Assembly (NCBI GenBank): GCA_009783855.1
Contig: WRCO01000015.1
Span: 1-28,149 of the forward strand
Source of the DNA: Alphaproteobacteria bacterium
GTDB taxonomy: Bacteria > Pseudomonadota > Alphaproteobacteria > Rs-D84
Length of the DNA: 28,149 nucleotides
Direction: 5' to 3'
Position 1 is the stretch's first letter; every line of letters starts with the position of its first letter. Positions 7,816-28,149 of this stretch are shown one piece after another. The translations under genes were made by a program, and so were the position numbers. Under the pieces are notes generated by a model. It was not told the origin of the DNA and searched no databases. It saw only the letters and a list, made by a program, of their open reading frames with translations.

Positions 7816-9879
7816 TCAATCATGCGTTTTCTGCAAAAACTTTGCAATATTCTGGTCGCCGATTATCCGCGACATTCTGACTTTAATCAATCCTTGGTCC
7901 GCAAGTTTGGCCAAGATTTGCGGACGGCGGTCTTTAAGTTCGTCTATTATGATGTCTTCCATTTTATCCCGAGGCCGTCCGCAAAGATAACGCAATGTGT
8001 ATGGGCGTCCGCCTTTGTTTTTCCAAAGCCGCGCGGCAATGTAATGGGTCAATAATCTGTTTTCTGAAAAAGTAATGAAACTTGCATTTGTGCACAGCAC
8101 TTCGAAAATATCTTTTTCGTTTTTTCTTTTGGCCGCGGGCGACTGCAAAGCAAATGCTTTTTTATCATTCATCGCGACGAACAGGTTGAATCGGCTTATG
8201 ATGGTTTCGGATTTCATGGTAAGCAACGCCGGATTTACTATCGTCGCCCTCAGATACCGCTCTAACGATATATGCGGCGTGAATGCTTCGACAACCCCCT
8301 TGATATTGCGTTCCACCGTATCGGGAGAAGTGGTAAACAGCATTGCCGTTCTCATCGCAACATGCAGATATTGTTCGACCGGCATGTGCGGCGCGAATTT
8401 TTCCACCGCGCCGTTTATGTTGCTTATTATCTTGTCCGGCGACCTGCTGAACAATTCCAACAATGGCGCCTTTGCGGCAGTCTTTATATATTTTTCAAGC
8501 GTCAGCCCGGCGCGCCTAAATTCTTCAACAACGCCCATTATGTTGCGTTCTACAACACGCGGGGAAATGCTGAACAGCCAGGGATTGCTCATCGCTATCT
8601 TCGTATACTGCGCCAAAGTCGGGCCGCCCACATGTTCGAATTTTTCAACGACACCCTTTATATTGCCCACCACTGTATCGGACGATTGAGCCAACAGGTT
8701 GGGATATTTTTTCACAAGTTGCAAATATTGCGCGCGATTGGACCCCAGCTGTTCTGTAAATTCGTTCATCTTTCCTTCAAGTGTGTCCGGTGACCGAGTA
8801 AACAATGACGGCGCGCTTATCGCCATTTTCACAATTTGCGCGAACGAAAGTTCCGGCGCAAATTTTTCGGCGATTCCTTTTATATTGCGCTCTATTGTTT
8901 CGGGTAAGATGCAAAGCAGTTGCGGGACGTATTCCGCCGCTTTGATATATTGCCCAAGCGATATGTGCGGCGCAAATTTTTCCACAACGCCTTTTATATT
9001 TCGCTCTATTGTTTCCGGGTGAAGAGAAAGCGTCCTTGGGGCAGTTTCCATCATCTTCAAATATTTTTCCAACGTCAAATGCGGCGCGAATATTTCAACG
9101 GTGGCGTTTATGTGGCGTTCTATCAAATCGGGCGATGCCGTAAGCAATTGCGGAGATTTTTCCGCCATCCGCAAATATTTGCGCAAGCTCAGGCCCGCAT
9201 GCGCGAACCTTGCCACGACTTCGTTGGTCACTTCGTCTATTTTGCGGTCCGCTCTGTCGGACAGTTGAACATCCGGCGACGACCATTTCAGTTTCCCTTT
9301 GCGCAAAGCGTATATCGACACTGGGCCGGTCGGCTTTCCGGATTGTTCGCCGGCTTTGGCAAACTCCGCCCATCCAAGAATTCCGGCAACCTTTTCACGG
9401 TCGAACATTTTGTCAAACAGTTCCGGGGCCGAAAGCGCCGCCGACAAAGCCTGTGCGCGGGTAAGCGGTGGGAATTCTTTGACCAGGGCACCTATGTTAT
9501 ATCCCGCCATCCTGGGCGAAAGGGTAAACAGCACCGGATTTTCCAGCGCCGCCCGCCGATACCTTGGCCACGTCAGGCCGTCTCTTTCGAATTGCCGGAC
9601 CATCCCGTCCACAACATATTCCATTTCATCAACCGACATGGAAAGCAGCGACGGCATCTTTGTCACTATTTGCAGGCAATACGAATGCGACAAATCAAAG
9701 AATGCAAGCATATCGTCGAAAGTTTTCCTGAAATTCAAACGAAAGCCGTTTTTTTCGATTTGTGTTTTGGTAAACTCGTCATTTATCAATTTTTCTGCGA
9801 CATCGTCTATGGTGTCTTTTGGGAATCCCGAAATTGTCATAAGCTGCAATTTGACCTGGGTCTTTAGATTGTTTGTCAT
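7816..9879 (-). CDS. Large tandem-repeat protein: >=12 copies of ~37-aa helical repeat (P-x-LL-x-x-SP-[DE]-T-[IV]-E-R-N-I-K-G-V-V-E-K-F-A-P-H-x-S-L-x-x-Y-L-K), mTERF-like
   Basis: 687 aa; repeats read directly (e.g. PQLLCILPETIERNIKGIAEKFAPELSFAQIVKMAISA); spacing of P-LL, I-x-x-V-x-x-F and L-x-x-I matches mTERF-type motif (inference). Confidence 0.6.
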   Translation of the reverse strand: MTNNLKTQVKLQLMTISGFPKDTIDDVAEKLINDEFTKTQIEKNGFRLNFRKTFDDMLAFFDLSHSYCLQIVTKMPSLLSMSVDEMEYVVDGMVRQFERDGLTWPRYRRAALENPVLFTLSPRMAGYNIGALVKEFPPLTRAQALSAALSAPELFDKMFDREKVAGILGWAEFAKAGEQSGKPTGPVSIYALRKGKLKWSSPDVQLSDRADRKIDEVTNEVVARFAHAGLSLRKYLRMAEKSPQLLTASPDLIERHINATVEIFAPHLTLEKYLKMMETAPRTLSLHPETIERNIKGVVEKFAPHISLGQYIKAAEYVPQLLCILPETIERNIKGIAEKFAPELSFAQIVKMAISAPSLFTRSPDTLEGKMNEFTEQLGSNRAQYLQLVKKYPNLLAQSSDTVVGNIKGVVEKFEHVGGPTLAQYTKIAMSNPWLFSISPRVVERNIMGVVEEFRRAGLTLEKYIKTAAKAPLLELFSRSPDKIISNINGAVEKFAPHMPVEQYLHVAMRTAMLFTTSPDTVERNIKGVVEAFTPHISLERYLRATIVNPALLTMKSETIISRFNLFVAMNDKKAFALQSPAAKRKNEKDIFEVLCTNASFITFSENRLLTHYIAARLWKNKGGRPYTLRYLCGRPRDKMEDIIIDELKDRRPQILAKLADQGLIKVRMSRIIGDQNIAKFLQKTHD

Positions 9880-24462: not shown

Positions 24463-24999
24463 ATGAAGAATATGAAGAAAATTAATGTAAAGGATTTGGC
24501 GAAAGTGCTTAAAGTCGGCGGATGGATTGTCGCCGGCATGCCCGCGATTTGGGCGCTTGGCAACTTGTTGTCGCTTTCGGCCCTTGTGTCTTGCGTGCTT
24601 TTTATCGCGGTTCTTACGATTTCATTTCTGGACAGGAACTGGCTTAAAAAAGCGGGCAAAGATGTCAAGAAGATTGAAATCTGGTGGTGCCTTTTGCCGC
24701 CGGTTTATCTCTTCAAACGCGCAAAGCTTTTGGGCGGTAAATTGACCGCGGTTTGGATCTGGTCCGGACTTTTTGCGATTGGGCTTATCTTTGCGCTTAT
24801 TTCCGGTGGTAATAATCCGGCGGCGCAATTTAATGCGCAATGCATGCAGGGTCTGCGTTCCGACGCTCCGGTTGAAATCGCACAGAGATATTGCGATTGC
24901 ATGACGGAACTTGCCGCGCGGGTTAACTTTATTCCGGAAGTCCTTGCGAACCCGCAATTGCAACAGCATTGCGCGCGCGTCGCGATGAGATTGCAGTAA
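24463..24999 (+). CDS. Small membrane protein (3-4 TM) with Cys-rich C-terminal domain
   Basis: Start at ATG 24463 after aaaaggaaaag SD; TM helices; followed by terminator. Confidence 0.5.
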   Translation: MKNMKKINVKDLAKVLKVGGWIVAGMPAIWALGNLLSLSALVSCVLFIAVLTISFLDRNWLKKAGKDVKKIEIWWCLLPPVYLFKRAKLLGGKLTAVWIWSGLFAIGLIFALISGGNNPAAQFNAQCMQGLRSDAPVEIAQRYCDCMTELAARVNFIPEVLANPQLQQHCARVAMRLQ

Positions 25000-25020
25000 A
25001 GAAAAACAAACAAATAAAAA

Positions 25021-25041
25021 CCGCGCGCCGCGCGGTTTTTA
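25021..25041 (+). terminator. Intrinsic terminator CCGCGCGccgCGCGCGG + TTTTTAT
   Basis: aaaaaCCGCGCGCCGCGCGGttttta 20 nt after stop. Confidence 0.75.
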
Positions 25042-25261
25042 TTTACTCGGCGATTTGGTGGCAGGAACGTCCCTTATGAGACGAGAAGCGCACACATTGC
25101 AGGTCAAACCGCGATAACCACTTCTTCTTTTTTGTAGTCTAAATTGTATTTGAAAGTATTTCCGAACGGCAGAAAGTGACATATGCCGGACATAAGAAAT
25201 GAACATACTGCCGACATAAGCTAAACTATTTTTAGTAGCTTTTCAACGTGGTTTTTATATA

Positions 25262-25281
25262 TTGTCCACTATAGTGGACAA
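25262..25281. repeat. 20-bp perfect palindrome TTGTCCACTATAGTGGACAA; -35 (TTGTCC) of promoter with TATAAT at 25284-25289
   Basis: Exact palindrome; extended flank atat...atat; 77 bp upstream of ATG 25359. Confidence 0.9.
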
Positions 25282-25358
25282 TATATAATGGATGCTGTAA
25301 ATTGCTTTTCGTAAATATATGAATTACAATTACTCTCGAAAATTCAAAAGGAGATTTA

Positions 25359-26036
25359 ATGTTCGTACCTAATCTTGATTTGTTGCACAAAAGCTCTGAA
25401 AGACCCGAACGAGAGCCGTATATTGCGATATTCAGGAAAGGTGAGAAAATTTTGATATACATTGCGGAAAAGCATAGTGCCAACGAGTCTTTCGATATGA
25501 CGGATTTTTGTTTTTCGGACAAATCTCCGGCCGCACCGCAGGTAGTACTTGTAGAATTTGAGCGGTCCGGAAGAAAAGCAGGGACTGGCGAGATTCATGG
25601 CAACAATTTAGCCTATGCGGCCGCACGCGCCACAGAGTGCGGACTGCCGGTAATCTTTGCGGATTTATCTCGGGACGAATGTCTGGATGTTTGGCGTAAA
25701 AGGTATCCGGAACGCATATTTACGGATGAAGATTTGCGGAGAGCTCGAAGAACCGGTAGACCGAGCACAAACAAAGGCGAGGACAGTTTACTTTTATATG
25801 AACTTGAGTTATATGGTCGCGATCCTTTTATGGTAAAAAACATAGTGGCGGCATTAAACAAATATGAAGTCGTTTTGGCAGTATTTGGTGAAGGACATTA
25901 TCGCGCCCAAAGACTTGTTCTGGAAGACATTATGGGCAAGCCGGAATATATAAAAGATGTCCCGAATACGCGCGGCGATTTCAGCAATTGTAAAATTGTC
26001 CCGATAGATTTAGGTGTTACAATAGCAGAACGATAA
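25359..26036 (+). CDS. TraB/GumN/PrgY (Tiki-like) family protein
   Basis: 225 aa; YIAEKHS (cf. GTAHVS), PQVVLVEFERS (cf. PDvVavElc), C-terminal VLAVFGEGHY (cf. vvGagHl) match TraB-family landmarks (inference). Confidence 0.4.
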   Translation: MFVPNLDLLHKSSERPEREPYIAIFRKGEKILIYIAEKHSANESFDMTDFCFSDKSPAAPQVVLVEFERSGRKAGTGEIHGNNLAYAAARATECGLPVIFADLSRDECLDVWRKRYPERIFTDEDLRRARRTGRPSTNKGEDSLLLYELELYGRDPFMVKNIVAALNKYEVVLAVFGEGHYRAQRLVLEDIMGKPEYIKDVPNTRGDFSNCKIVPIDLGVTIAER

Positions 26037-26069
26037 ACTATTGTCCACTATAGTGGACAATAGTTTATC
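26032..26069. repeat. 38-bp perfect palindrome GATAAACTA-TTGTCCACTATAGTGGACAA-TAGTTTATC containing family palindrome; between convergent genes
   Basis: Exact; encloses TAA stop (26034-26036) of TraB-like gene; candidate bidirectional hairpin terminator. Confidence 0.9.
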
Positions 26070-26370
26070 TGATTTCGACTTGAAGTTTTATATCAAATAA
26101 ATTCAACAGACGTAAAATTGTTATAAATTCGGGATTGCCGTCCGATGATAGCATTTTATAAAATCCGCTTTTGGAAATTCCCAGTGTTTCAAAAATAGTA
26201 GAAATTCTGTGATGCGTTTTCGAGAGTTCTTTTAATACAGATTTAATTTTTTCTATATCCAAATTATCCAATGCGACGGATAGTTCGCCAATCAATTTTG
26301 GGTCGATTTCTTTATTTTTCAAAAAATGTTCCCGCTCAATCTTTGGCTTGGATAAAAGTGAAAAACGCAT
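26065..26370 (-). CDS. HigA-like addiction-module antidote protein (HTH; TIGR02684-type), orphan
   Basis: 101 aa; C-terminal ISTIFETLGISKSGFYKMLSSDGNPEFITILRLLNLFDIKLQV matches ...GLSRESLYKALS.GNP.FDTILKVLKALGLKL... of this family; no RelE/HigB-like partner upstream. Confidence 0.6.
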   Translation of the reverse strand: MRFSLLSKPKIEREHFLKNKEIDPKLIGELSVALDNLDIEKIKSVLKELSKTHHRISTIFETLGISKSGFYKMLSSDGNPEFITILRLLNLFDIKLQVEIR

Positions 26371-26405
26371 ATTGCTCTCCTTGGGCTATATGCATCATTA
26401 TAATG

Positions 26406-26425
26406 TTGTCCACTATAGTGGACAA
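26406..26425. repeat. 20-bp perfect palindrome TTGTCCACTATAGTGGACAA forming -35/spacer of HigA-like gene promoter (TATAAT at 26397-26402 on minus strand)
   Basis: Exact palindrome 36 bp upstream of start 26370; TTGTCC-17-TATAAT then SD aaggagag. Confidence 0.85.
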
Positions 26426-26541
26426 GCATTTAATTAACGCGGCATAAATAAAACAAAGACATAGTTGGAAAATATTGGTGTTTTTATAGTTTATGAGGTG
26501 GCGTTGCTTGCTACATATCCGGGACATAGAAATCGGAGATA

Positions 26542-26570
26542 TTGCCGACATATATCAAACTATTTTTAAT
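26542..26570 (+). promoter_or_regulatory. Sigma70-like promoter TTGCCG-17bp-TTTAAT inside conserved ~70-bp module, reading into palindrome 26582 and antisense to the HExxH gene
   Basis: Module ~78% identical to 25178-25247 upstream of TraB-like gene. Confidence 0.4.
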
Positions 26571-26581
26571 AGTTTTTTAAC

Positions 26582-26601
26582 TTGTCTACTATAGTAGACA
26601 A
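26582..26601. repeat. 20-bp perfect palindrome, T-variant TTGTCTACTATAGTAGACAA
   Basis: Exact; abuts stop of HExxH gene (26603). Confidence 0.9.
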
Positions 26602-26602
26602 A

Positions 26603-27538
26603 TTATCGAACGGTTTTTCGTGATCCAATCGTACGGGAAATTATTTTGAACATCACTTCTTCTAAATCTTCTTTGCAGCCGCTGTCATAGTATTCTTTGA
26701 TTAAAGGATACGATACTGGGAATACATCATCCACGCCACATCCCTTGTGGTAATCTTTCGCGGCAGAATCAATATTTCGAATGCAACAATCAAGACCCAC
26801 CACCAATGCCTGTTCATAGTGGAATTGCCATCCTTTATAATCCACTTTTTCCATAAATTTGACGATTTTATTATTTTTTGCCCATTCTTCTTTTAACAAT
26901 ATATGCAAGCCTTCGTGAGTAAAACCAAAATCATGCCCCGGGCGACGCATTGTTCCCATGCTGACATTGGGCTCGAACCATATTGCTGCCTCTGCCGTTG
27001 CTTCTGTGGGAAATACATAGAAATCATCCCCCGGTATGCGCTGCGTGGCAAGTTCCATTTTTTCAAGGGCTTCGGCGAAATCGAAACCGTTCGCGCATTT
27101 TTCAAACAAAGCCTCTCTGTCTTTCAATGTTTCCCGCCAGTAATCCCGATAGAATTTTTCCCAGCTTTTCCGCAAAGCCCGATCGAAATTAACTTCAGTA
27201 ACACCCATGTGAACGTTCTCCAAATCGACCGGCTTTTCCCAGATTTTATTGTCCATTATGTATTGCATGCCGGTTTCATATATTCGCAAACGTTTTTTCG
27301 GCTTCCAATCAGACGCATAAAAATTCTGGCCGGTGCGGGTGCAGTACTGGGGTTGTATTATTTCTTCAAATATTTCACTGTCGATTGACTGACGCACTTT
27401 TTCATTCTGCCGCAAGGCATACTGGTTGCCCTGCACCCCCAGCATCCCGTAAATATTCAACGTATGAATAAAAAAGTTCACCGCTTCGTTACAGCTGATG
27501 ATTATTTTTGCGTTTTTTGTGGTTACTACTTTATTCAT
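26603..27538 (-). CDS. Putative zinc metallopeptidase (HExxH: FTHEGLHILL), family not recognised
   Basis: 311 aa; single HEGLH motif; low-GC gene bracketed by palindromes. Confidence 0.45.
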   Translation of the reverse strand: MNKVVTTKNAKIIISCNEAVNFFIHTLNIYGMLGVQGNQYALRQNEKVRQSIDSEIFEEIIQPQYCTRTGQNFYASDWKPKKRLRIYETGMQYIMDNKIWEKPVDLENVHMGVTEVNFDRALRKSWEKFYRDYWRETLKDREALFEKCANGFDFAEALEKMELATQRIPGDDFYVFPTEATAEAAIWFEPNVSMGTMRRPGHDFGFTHEGLHILLKEEWAKNNKIVKFMEKVDYKGWQFHYEQALVVGLDCCIRNIDSAAKDYHKGCGVDDVFPVSYPLIKEYYDSGCKEDLEEVMFKIISRTIGSRKTVR

Positions 27539-27617
27539 TTCTTGGTCCGCTTATAGGTAATTTTGAATATTATAAATCATATTTTTACATAAACAACCTC
27601 AAAAGCGCTAATTATGC

Positions 27618-27637
27618 TTGTCCACTATAGTGGACAA
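27618..27637. repeat. 20-bp perfect palindrome TTGTCCACTATAGTGGACAA (extended gcTTGTCC...GGACAAgc); -35 for HExxH gene promoter (CATAAT 2 bp downstream on minus strand)
   Basis: Exact; 80 bp upstream of ATG 27538. Confidence 0.85.
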
Positions 27638-27723
27638 GCATATGCGAACAGCCGGATATGGTAGGCATGTCTCCACATATAATGATTGTTATACGAAAAA
27701 AGAAAAAATAATAGAAAAATGCG

Positions 27724-27743
27724 TTGTCCACTATAGTGGACAT
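27724..27743. repeat. Near-perfect palindrome TTGTCCACTATAGTGGACAT (1 mismatch), tandem to 27618 copy (106 bp apart)
   Basis: Read directly. Confidence 0.85.
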
Positions 27744-27849
27744 AATTGTAAAATATTAGCGTTCTTGTAGTTTAAGCGCACGCATCCGGCCTTTGCCCGT
27801 TGGGCTTCGGCGGACAGGTTGCCCGCTACATATACGGAACTATTTTTCA

Positions 27850-28125
27850 TTATCTGCCCTGTCGCATTTGTGACAAGGCTTGCTTTATTATCATAAATTC
27901 ATTGGTGCCGAAATAAGCATAGCAATGCACAAAAAAGGCCGCTTCAAGCGCTTTGTCGTCGATGTTCTTGTCGCTTGCTATTTTTTGCAGCCGTTGCAAC
28001 AAATCAAAGGCCTCCGGGATTTGTATCCGCACGATGCGGTTTTTGTCGGCCGACTTCGCCTTTTCTTTCACGATGGCGTACATTTGATTCCACTGCACCG
28101 TAAAATCGTTCATCAGATTGCGCAT
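27850..28125 (-). CDS. Hypothetical small protein
   Basis: 91 aa ORF; low-GC; no domain recognised. Confidence 0.35.
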   Translation of the reverse strand: MRNLMNDFTVQWNQMYAIVKEKAKSADKNRIVRIQIPEAFDLLQRLQKIASDKNIDDKALEAAFFVHCYAYFGTNEFMIIKQALSQMRQGR

Positions 28126-28149
28126 TTGCGGGGCAAGTTCTCCCGTGGT

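Follow-up and report, generated by a model that had tools for sequence, protein, structure and literature searches.

Small XRE-fold repressors such as HipB, SinR, the 434/P22-type repressors and the controller (C) proteins of restriction-modification (R-M) systems bind as dimers to promoter-overlapping operators of about 14–20 bp and regulate their own synthesis; in this fold, bases are contacted by recognition-helix positions 1, 2 and 6. Related in size and domain order to the protein described here are the HigA2/HI1420-type antitoxins (PF21716, TIGR02684). A system with many operators is known from the cluster A mycobacteriophages, in which the immunity repressor (L5 gp71) acts on numerous operators and 'stoperators' distributed through the element; stoperators are 13-bp asymmetric sites of the phage genome that a single repressor monomer binds and that point in the direction of transcription (PMC6550527, PMC9283540).

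The window analysed here (the whole 28-kb stretch, which is an entire contig from an uncultured alphaproteobacterium) contains seven copies of a 20-bp palindrome, TTGTCYACTATAGTRGACAA, counting exact and one-mismatch matches. They start at positions 281, 25262, 26041, 26406, 26582, 27618 and 27724, and six of the seven lie inside a 2.5-kb low-GC block. Dinucleotide-preserving shuffles (n = 100) yielded 0 matches, for a chance expectation of 0, and a search allowing up to three mismatches to the 18-mer core revealed no extra degenerate palindromes in the whole 28 kb. Each of the seven falls between genes, and the GC content of the block is 0.33–0.46 vs about 0.50 in the rest of the window. These results bear out the preliminary description of this DNA, which had counted seven copies, six of them within 2.5 kb, and had placed them at the boundaries of low-GC genes; its '91-aa ORF', by contrast, is the 3′ portion of a 154-aa gene truncated at the window end. 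The features of the region are as follows.

281–300: palindrome of the CTAC class (TTGTCTACTATAGTAGACAA), 64 nt past the DsbA stop codon and immediately beyond the DsbA terminator
25100–25259, + strand: junction element J_A, with promoter-like ...TAGTCT, motif 1 (ACATATGCCGGACATAAGAAAT) and motif 2 (AAACTATTTTT)
25262–25281: palindrome of the CCAC class, 77 nt 5′ of the TraB-like ATG, with a private palindromic extension to 34 bp
25359–26036, + strand: 225-aa TraB/PrgY/GumN-like gene with a weak match in Pfam
26041–26060: palindrome, 4 nt from each of two convergent stop codons (TraB-like and HTH)
26065–26370, − strand: HTH gene, 101 aa, orphan HigA2-like XRE-fold putative repressor
26406–26425: palindrome, 35 nt 5′ of the HTH ATG
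26440–26581, + strand: junction element J_B, with TTGGAA-N16-TAGTTT, motif 1 (ACATATCCGGGACATAGAAAT), an AT-rich hairpin with a T-run, and motif 2
26582–26601: palindrome of the CTAC class, 1 nt 3′ of the HExxH stop codon
26603–27538, − strand: 311-aa HEGLH-motif protein (HExxH), no family match
27618–27637: palindrome, 79 nt 5′ of the HExxH ATG, extended to 28–30 bp
27724–27743: palindrome with one mismatch (…GGACAT; final T, not A), 106 nt from the stop codon of the last ORF
27739–27850, + strand: junction element J_C, a truncated copy with motif 1 fused to motif 2
27850–28149, − strand: 3′ part of the 154-aa gene that runs off the contig; no family reached significance

The HTH protein scored 32.9 bits against PF21716 (cutoff 27) and 30.4 bits against TIGR02684, which is below the cutoff of 53.7, and it also matches phrog_4268, 'transcriptional repressor'. 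Its family is very small and sharply separated, comprising four clusters at E ≤ 1e-10 among 1.84 billion representatives. The AlphaFold model (pLDDT 74) places helices at residues 24–35, 39–50, 56–63, 67–73 and 82–91, a five-helix XRE HTH fold, and among PDB folds it is most similar to HipB, C.AhdI and SinR (probability up to 0.98, with weak E-values), all of which are operator-binding XRE dimers; a PDB sequence search with the HTH profile gave no matches. With the HigA2/HI1420-type antitoxins the protein shares a length of about 100 aa, a C-terminal XRE-type HTH, a predicted-disordered N-terminus and a palindromic putative operator in its own promoter. It differs from them in that no adjacent toxin gene (HI1419/RelE-ParE-like) was called at any of the ~23 HTH loci, in its sub-cutoff TIGR02684 score, and in having many putative operators through which it may control unrelated neighbour genes. 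With HipB, SinR, the 434/P22-type repressors and the C proteins it has in common the XRE fold and palindromic, promoter-overlapping sites, whereas it lacks a HipA, R-M or lysis-lysogeny partner, carries two extra N-terminal helices plus a conserved disordered tail, and has further putative operators downstream of genes, at their 3′ ends, and in extended arrays. The N-terminal 23 residues, which are conserved and predicted to be disordered, may serve as a partner-binding segment or a degron.

We then compared the palindromes with promoter geometry. Three copies form the −35 hexamer and spacer of a promoter: that of the TraB-like gene at 25262 (TTGTCC-16-TATAAT, −10 at 25284–25289, + strand), that of the HTH gene at 26406 (TTGTCC-N17-TATAAT, −10 at 26397–26402, − strand; the same copy also gives TTGTCC-N17-TTTAAT on the + strand) and that of the HExxH gene at 27618 (TTGTCC-N15-CATAAT, −10 at 27611–27616, − strand). 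The earlier claim that the palindrome supplies the −35 of three promoters thus holds, with two of the three (25262 and 26425) among the top matches of an independent promoter scan and the third (27637) read from the sequence. The mismatched copy at 27724 lies directly 5′ of the promoter-like TTGTAA-N16-TAGTTT of J_C. The arrangement at the HTH gene recurs throughout the family: in every one of ~23 distinct homologues a palindrome overlaps a TTGTCC-N17-TATAAT promoter 25–41 nt 5′ of the ATG, and in most of them a second palindrome follows 4–9 nt 3′ of the stop codon, the window copy at 26041 being this conserved 'post-stop' site. At all loci the HTH gene has its own promoter directly 5′ and a palindrome or terminator directly 3′. 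At the right spacing, a −10 scoring 5/6 or better accompanies 36% of all sites, vs 7.5% of control positions. As a point against an operator function, promoter geometry is found in only about one-third of sites, the remainder being 3′-end sites and non-coding arrays of 11–17 sites in L038, L055 and L056.

Taken as sequence evidence, these patterns point to the 20-bp palindrome being the operator of the 101-aa orphan HigA2-like HTH protein, a reading to which we give a probability of roughly 0.75. A dimer of the protein would bind TTGTC-N10-GACAA, and the putative operator makes up the −35 hexamer and spacer of the σ70-type promoters at 25262, 26406 and 27618; owing to this overlap, bound repressor would exclude RNA polymerase, and the protein would shut down the TraB-like and HExxH genes together with its own. 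The family-conserved post-stop site, ~368 bp (about 35 helical turns) from the first, is probably an auxiliary operator and may act via looping or as a roadblock. A double role of the palindrome, as promoter core and dimer operator, with autoregulation by the HTH protein, had been proposed in the preliminary description; the ~23 homologous loci strongly support this proposal, and the comparative evidence that the HTH protein and the palindrome would constitute a cognate, autoregulated repressor–operator pair is strong. If true, a toxin-less antitoxin-type family has been turned into a local master regulator, and horizontally acquired genes are bracketed by operator-promoters and operator-terminators.

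Lineages differ in palindrome sequence, and the variation tracks recognition-helix residues 67–69 and 72, which are positions 1–3 and 6 of helix 67–73 in the AlphaFold model (K67-S-G-F-Y-K72 in the window protein). SKSGFYK is paired with CCAC, SKSGFYN with CCTT, SRSSFYN with CCAA, SRPGFYK with CTAC, SRSGFYR with CTAT and SRPGFYN with CTAA, and the correspondence of helix class to site class is 1:1 over seven classes. When the helix is masked, a CCTT-class protein lies nearest to the CCAC-class proteins of L045 and L050, and the CTAA-class protein of L090 groups nearest to the CTAC-class proteins; K72 together with AC recurs on SKSG, SRPG, SRAG and SRSG-H backbones. Because the helix/site pairing crosses protein backbones, it speaks for direct readout and against shared ancestry, and positions 1–3 and 6 would set specificity. 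Asymmetric hybrid sites also occur (for example TTGTCCACTATAGTAGACAA and TTGTCCATTATAAAGGACAA), suggesting that half-sites act independently, as expected for recognition of half-sites by a protein. The CTAC variant, TTGTCTAC, belongs to the class that in other genomes is cognate to SR(P/A)G..K paralogues, and single genomes hold coexisting HTH paralogues of different classes. The two specificities suggested earlier for the window are in principle upheld by these observations, and since paralogues of other specificity share genomes, the two CTAC-class sites at 281 and 26582 may belong to a paralogue. If the pairing is real, related uncultured bacteria hold at least seven naturally matched repressor/operator pairs that differ by 1–4 recognition-helix residues and 2–3 bp per half-site, from which the recognition code of an XRE-fold HTH could be read and orthogonal parts drawn for synthetic circuits.

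We also evaluated the sites as nucleic acid hairpins. The 26041 copy is the centre of a 38-bp perfect palindrome (26032–26069) predicted to form a 17-bp RNA hairpin of −25 kcal/mol from either strand, and the predicted stabilities of hairpins at the sites lie between −14 and −25 kcal/mol, with z-scores between −4 and −10. A T-rich tail is present at 65% of sites vs 32% of controls, a twofold enrichment, and copy-specific palindromic extensions of at least 4 bp occur at 9 of 64 perfect sites vs 0.6 expected (about 15-fold). Some sites lie immediately 3′ of stop codons, such as that at 3419 in L092, which has a T6 run. As protein binding alone leaves the T-rich tails and stem extensions unexplained, a hairpin function is indicated, and the 3′-end sites, many of which have such tails or private extensions, would probably also serve as transcript-end hairpins insulating each gene. 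The terminator-like geometry and private palindromic extensions of many sites were passed over in the preliminary description.

These same features, together with the perfect symmetry kept by variants across lineages, could be taken to mean that the palindromes act mainly as RNA or DNA hairpins (lineage-specific intrinsic terminators or 3′-end stabilisers) or REP/MITE-like selfish repeats, and that their symmetric changes are compensatory stem mutations. We consider this quite improbable: the upstream site of every HTH gene overlaps the −35 and precedes the transcription start, a position from which no RNA hairpin can arise, hybrids of unlike half-sites are tolerated, and the changes follow recognition-helix residues. 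The flanking of a gene by a lineage-specific palindrome that is also present elsewhere in the genome does resemble REP elements with their RAYT genes (REPtrons). However, REP/RAYT systems have tens to hundreds of dispersed copies and a Y1 transposase, whereas exact copies of the present palindrome number 2–5 per metagenome-assembled genome (MAG) and are clustered, unlike the generic REP/MITE scatter that had been named as a refuting case, and the flanked gene encodes an HTH protein without a catalytic domain, not RAYT or another transposase.

The non-coding arrays bear on a further alternative. Tandem arrays of 7–17 sites, spaced by ~65–107 bp, lie beside the HTH gene in L038, L055 and L056, their copy number differs among sister strains, and some HTH loci are inside prophage-like DNA (L034); such features would suit centromere-like or nucleoid-organising arrays (parS/sopC-like), with the HTH protein as a centromere-binding protein in segregation or silencing of an integrated element. 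The probability of this is very low, given that no ParA, ParM or TubZ partner turned up at any locus, that the window and L037–L039 are ordinary chromosomal settings (RecO, DsbA, PolA, Pth), and that the window sites are spread over gene boundaries and promoters with no tandem array. The repressor–operator reading finds a parallel in L5 gp71: in both, one small (here putative) repressor is accompanied by many near-identical sites, some in promoters and most at non-promoter positions between genes, sites occur both upstream and downstream of the repressor gene, and repressor and site motifs diverge jointly into specificity groups. Unlike stoperators, the present sites are perfect 20-bp palindromes implying a dimer, are located on a bacterial chromosome, and belong to several paralogous systems per genome. 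We regard the likeness as a functional analogy only; if the operator reading is true, the system would be a bacterial-chromosome counterpart to phage stoperator immunity.

The window palindromes are embedded in longer junction repeats, and the modules are separated by the degenerate elements J_A, J_B and J_C, whose motif 1 follows the pattern ACATAT.CGG.ACATAGAAAT. In the related locus L094, four 184-nt repeats separate single genes, and each repeat begins within the 3′ end of tRNA-Asn and contains a palindrome, a structure that is a signature of serial integration. Neither the junction repeats nor this cassette accretion at a tRNA in a related genome had been remarked on before. A 33-aa ORF in J_B was rejected as a small peptide, its frame not being conserved in L088, J_A or J_C.

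Single-gene accessory modules with palindrome-containing repeats between them are reminiscent of integron cassettes (attC) and of CIME/IME accretion at tRNA genes, and L094 has tandem units, each with a partial tRNA 3′-end copy; known CIMEs are far larger than these ~1-kb units (PMC5704250). The palindromes could accordingly be crossover sites of a recombinase encoded elsewhere, bounding mobile single-gene cassettes in which the HTH gene is an accessory or regulatory passenger. This would agree with the low GC and accessory-type functions of the modules (TraB-like and HExxH here; APH and APH(6) kinases, SpoU methylase and GNAT in related loci) as well as with the repeats of L094 and the window, yet it strikes us as very doubtful. 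Neither the window nor any of ~15 long related loci yielded an integrase, resolvase or invertase; the statement in the preliminary description that the window encodes no recombinase is correct for every window ORF, and its alternative of integron, pdif or shufflon sites is unsupported here. No rearrangement was found, site order and orientation being identical across at least five independent assemblies. In L094 the mosaic breakpoint between repeats falls left of the palindrome instead of at its midpoint, a perfectly symmetric core confers no directionality, and recombination does not predict that site and HTH helix covary.

The comparison with individual systems gave the same picture. The present genes have their own promoters and both orientations, unlike integron cassettes, which are promoterless and in one orientation; the sites are 20-bp perfect palindromes, unlike attC (a 57–141 bp imperfect palindrome); and no IntI or other integrase, which in integrons lies with attI beside the array, was found in window ORFs or related loci. 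Modules of the pdif type have 28-bp XerC/XerD sites (11-6-11) in alternating orientation, in contrast to the 20-bp, perfectly symmetric sites here, and we know of no resemblance of the palindrome to the dif consensus. Shufflons and other invertible segments differ in that no inversion junction variants were seen in the five or more assemblies and no Rci/Hin-type recombinase was found. Contig ends at palindromes were rejected as signs of rearrangement; colinearity with the window is 100%, and the breaks are artefacts of repeated or palindromic k-mers.

A broader reading, which we hold to be unlikely when taken as a whole, is that a clade of uncultured gut Alphaproteobacteria possesses a gene-capture system not described before, whose boundaries the palindromes mark. 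Single-gene cassettes of ~1 kb would be stacked at tRNA genes or other hot spots, each bringing an operator-promoter and an operator-terminator; paralogous HigA2-like repressors resident in the genome, with orthogonal specificities, would silence them, and the palindrome or the surrounding junction repeat would double as a recombination substrate. The accretion in L094 raises the possibility of such a new capture-and-silencing route for foreign genes.

The L094 homologue of the TraB-like gene (62% identity) is also flanked by the palindrome class of its own genome, and the HExxH gene has a paralogue in the same MAG (L092) that is again followed by a CTAC-class palindrome. The TraB-like gene is site-flanked in two of three genomes and the HExxH gene solely in the window's own genome (two paralogues); in other genomes, homologues of the cargo genes are not always site-flanked, a point against the operator reading. 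PADLOC defence models gave no matches to the island proteins. Rfam searches of the whole window at the gathering threshold, and of 24950–28149, 1–400 and L033 9200–10700 in E-value mode, returned only tRNA-Gln and weak terminator-driven matches, and positions 1–260, downstream of the copy at 281, have no significant RNA structure (z −0.48).

Several short-motif resemblances of the palindrome were considered and rejected. The half-site TTGTCCAC resembles a DnaA box (TTATCCACA-like 9-mers), and a DnaA-box reading of the TTGTCCACA-like half-site was discarded because the sister classes TTGTCCTT, TTGTCCAA and TTGTCTAT have no CACA. A T7-type promoter, suggested by the CACTATAG core and by the T7-like prophage DNA of L034, was dismissed since the motif is absent from the other classes and no phage RNA polymerase was seen. 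A resemblance to resolvase sites (half-site TGTCYNNTA) was set aside, since a serine-recombinase site I needs more than the 18-bp spacing seen here and no resolvase was found. Counting against the operator reading, the identical 20-mer also occurs at least eight times in a Patescibacteria MAG (JAZQJV01), in the examined portion of which there is no HTH homologue.

A search for TTGTCYACTATAGTRGACAA found seven copies of the 20-bp palindrome in the window (starts 281, 25262, 26041, 26406, 26582, 27618 and 27724), all of them intergenic, and none in any of 100 dinucleotide-preserving shuffles, which bears out the count in the preliminary description. The palindromes are a real feature. The copy at 27724 carries one mismatch, and relaxing the search to three mismatches on the 18-bp core added no site in the window, indicating that the palindromes here are perfect or nearly so. 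Six of the seven fall within a 2.5-kb block with a GC content of 0.33–0.46, versus about 0.50 in the remaining window. The earlier proposal that the palindrome supplies the −35 hexamer of three sigma70-type promoters also held, and those at 25262 and 26425 rank among the top matches of an independent promoter scan; the "91-aa ORF" listed previously is in fact the 3′ portion of a 154-aa gene truncated at the contig end.

Promoters with a palindrome-borne −35 hexamer in the window.
25262, + strand: TTGTCC-16-TATAAT, reading towards the TraB-like gene
26425, − strand: TTGTCC-17-TATAAT, reading towards the HTH gene
27637, − strand: TTGTCC-15-CATAAT, reading towards the HExxH gene

The HTH protein (101 aa, 26065–26370, − strand) exceeds the Pfam threshold for PF21716 (dnstrm_HI1420, HigA2-like antitoxin), scores under the TIGR02684 cutoff, and also matches phrog_4268, annotated "transcriptional repressor". 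Its AlphaFold model (pLDDT 74) has a disordered N-terminus of 23 residues followed by five helices, and the best PDB fold matches, with weak E-values and probabilities up to 0.98, are HipB, C.AhdI and SinR, all XRE-fold dimers on palindromic operators. The subfamily is tiny: only 4 clusters at E ≤1e-10 among 1.84 billion representatives, followed by a gap to 5e-10, with all named members from uncultured Alphaproteobacteria or Rickettsiales MAGs. Within residues 1–23, the segment MRFSLLSKPKIER.HF hardly varies among family members despite its predicted disorder, and by analogy with HigA2 it may bind a partner or serve as a degron. The HExxH protein adjoins the HTH gene in the window's genome only.

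We compared about 23 distinct HTH homologues with their flanking DNA. Every homologue has a 20-bp palindrome over the −35 and spacer of TTGTCC-N17-TATAAT, 25–41 nt upstream of the ATG, and most have a second one 4–9 nt past the stop codon, the two lying about 368 bp apart; no adjacent toxin gene was found at any of these loci. The outer TTGTC...GACAA is invariant, positions 6–8 and their mirror positions vary by lineage, and half-site positions 6–8 track the recognition helix (residues 67–72) one to one.

Recognition helices of the HTH homologues and their half-sites.
SKSGFYK: TTGTCCAC (window)
SKSGFYN: TTGTCCTT
SRSSFY(N/Q): TTGTCCAA
SR(P/A)G(F/Y)YK: TTGTCTAC
SRSGFYR: TTGTCTAT
SRPGFYN: TTGTCTAA
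SRSGFYL: TTGTCCAT, AATT centre

The pattern appears not to reflect shared ancestry only, because clustering of the proteins with the recognition helix masked crosses site classes (named by their variable half-site bases): CCAC-class L045 and L050 are nearest to a CCTT-class protein, CTAA-class L090 is nearest to CTAC-class proteins, and K72 with AC recurs on four or five distinct backbones. The covarying residues are recognition-helix positions 1–3 and 6, the usual base contacts of XRE/Cro-type HTHs (434/P22-type repressors). Asymmetric hybrid palindromes occur, and the half-sites therefore behave independently. This comparison provides strong evidence that the HTH protein binds the palindrome and autoregulates, as suggested earlier; the operator reading is well supported by covariation, and the system would be an orphan antitoxin-type XRE repressor with a co-evolving operator family bracketing acquired genes.

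Two specificities had been suspected from the site variants, and paralogues of different classes do coexist: a single 69-kb contig carries CCAA-class L034 and CTAC-class L088, and in the window's own metagenome/MAG, L090 encodes an SRPGFYN paralogue with CTAA sites and L092 holds CTAC and CTAA sites, one directly after an HExxH-gene paralogue. The window's CTAC sites (281 and 26582) belong to a class cognate elsewhere to SRPG..K paralogues; no SRPG..K paralogue was found for the window's genome. Cross-binding of these sites by the resident HTH protein is equally possible, since CTAC sites are likewise found close to the CCAC-type genes of L010 and L059. T7-like prophage or GTA-like DNA, with genes for T7 capsid, terminase, head-tail connector and DnaB, houses some of the HTH paralogues and TraB-like homologues (L034 1–20306 and L101); one genome with a local HTH of the CCAA class has a CCAC-class site 55 nt ahead of the terminase gene.

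The operator model does not explain non-promoter sites, T-rich tails or stem extensions. A good −10 at correct spacing accompanies 36% of all sites versus 7.5% of control positions; the remaining sites form three groups, at gene 3′ ends, in conserved junction elements, and in tandem arrays of 7–17 sites spaced 65–107 bp apart in non-coding DNA adjoining an HTH gene.

Tandem palindrome arrays, all non-coding and next to an HTH gene.
L038: 10315–11082
L056: 5874–7104
L055: 3906–4238 and 5510–5952

Copy number varies among sister strains (L037, 2; L038, 7; L056, 11), and array units come in two alternating forms, promoter-like (…GGACAA-N3-AATAAT) and terminator-like (…GGACAT with a T-rich tail). 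A one-sided T-rich tail follows 65% of sites versus 32% of nearby control positions, and copy-specific palindromic extensions of at least 4 bp occur in 9 of 64 perfect sites with distinct flanks, against 0.6 expected. Extended palindromes in the window measure 34 bp at 25262, 38 bp at 26041 and 30 bp at 27618; the longest, which stands where the TraB-like and HTH genes converge, has a folding energy of −25 kcal/mol on each strand. From the tails, the private extensions and this fold we propose a dual use: on DNA, the palindromes would act as operators, whether within promoters or at auxiliary, roadblock or looping positions; as RNA, they would fold into insulating hairpins at transcript ends. 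In function they most resemble the operator/stoperator system of Cluster A mycobacteriophages, in which repressors and site motifs likewise diverge in concert (PMC6550527); unlike the palindromes here, those stoperators are asymmetric and monomer-bound (PMC9283540).

The window palindromes are also embedded in longer repeats, here called junction elements.

J_A: 25100–25259
J_B: 26440–26581
J_C: 27739–27850

All three share a promoter-like TTGNAA-N16-TAGTTT, the motif ACATAT.CGG.ACATAGAAAT and the motif AACTATTTTT. These motifs accompany palindromes in at least 7 other genomes, and a GC-rich terminator usually separates them (L033 10343, 15912 and 102(−); L041 1871; L043 3478; L048 93(−); L050 2774; L088 8240; L010 332(−)). 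The conserved element spans 110–150 nt in the order ACATAT.CGG.ACATAGAAAT (ACATA direct repeats about 11 nt apart), terminator hairpin, motif GGAACTATTTTT, with the promoter-like sequence in some copies. It has no match in Rfam, and may represent either an sRNA gene under HTH control or a junction of the att-like kind.

Such embedding would suit cassette recombination at the palindromes, as would a locus in L094 (same MAG as L033; 8688–11106), where four direct repeats of 184 nt come after a tRNA-Asn; every one of them begins 23 nt within the 3′ end of the tRNA and holds a terminator and a palindrome. Between the repeats stand single genes (a 232-aa ORF, a TraB-like homologue 62% identical to the window's, and GNAT), with no integrase nearby, and the pattern looks like the signature of serial integration of about 1-kb cassettes. 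Repeat 4 combines sequence from repeats 1 and 2, and the junction of this mosaic lies left of the palindrome, away from its centre; the palindrome is therefore not identified as the crossover point. Recombination as the primary function, the alternative raised earlier, is very improbable: neither the window nor any long related locus encodes a recombinase, the six sites keep the same order in at least 5 independent assemblies, and the contigs that end at sites show 100% colinearity with the window, their breaks being caused by the repeated palindromic k-mers that the sites form. Accessory-type cargo beside sites elsewhere (APH and APH(6) kinases, a PHP domain protein, a SpoU methylase, an AAA kinase), together with the hairpin, array and junction aspects outside the operator model, keeps alive the wider reading of a repressor-policed cassette platform, which we nevertheless consider unlikely.

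Several other readings were ruled out: REP/RAYT-like repeats (the copies are few, lie in clusters and flank a gene that does not encode a transposase), centromere-like arrays (a partition NTPase is absent), and DnaA boxes or T7-type promoters (the motif is lost in sister classes). The exact CTAC 20-mer and close variants also occur in at least 8 copies in the Patescibacteria MAG JAZQJV01, in front of rpsU, in the groES-groEL spacer and downstream of groEL (L004 1546–1605; L024 1527, 1548, 3263, 4190 and 5719; L018 787); the JAZQJV01 sequence examined has no HTH homologue.

The window is a complete 28,149-bp contig from an uncultured alphaproteobacterial MAG, and outside the low-GC block its genes are those of an ordinary chromosome (S6, S18, L9, RecO, DsbA, Sua5, GroES/GroEL, MipA, OmpA, tRNA-Gln). 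A 687-aa protein (7816–9879, − strand) has an mTERF domain (E 1.5e-11), unusual in a bacterium, as mTERF domains are found mostly in eukaryotes and organelles. Near the contig start, at 100–122, is a (GT)11 microsatellite, and the 260-nt stretch past site 281 has an extended −10 (TGcTATAAT, − strand) but neither an ORF with a family match nor significant RNA structure. RecO-DsbA and a CTAC site occupy one contig end (1–1894) and the HTH block the opposite end; the two ends may be neighbours in the genome, because in the related genome L037/L038 (4234–10306) the HTH locus lies 4 kb past RecO-DsbA, after polA and pth.
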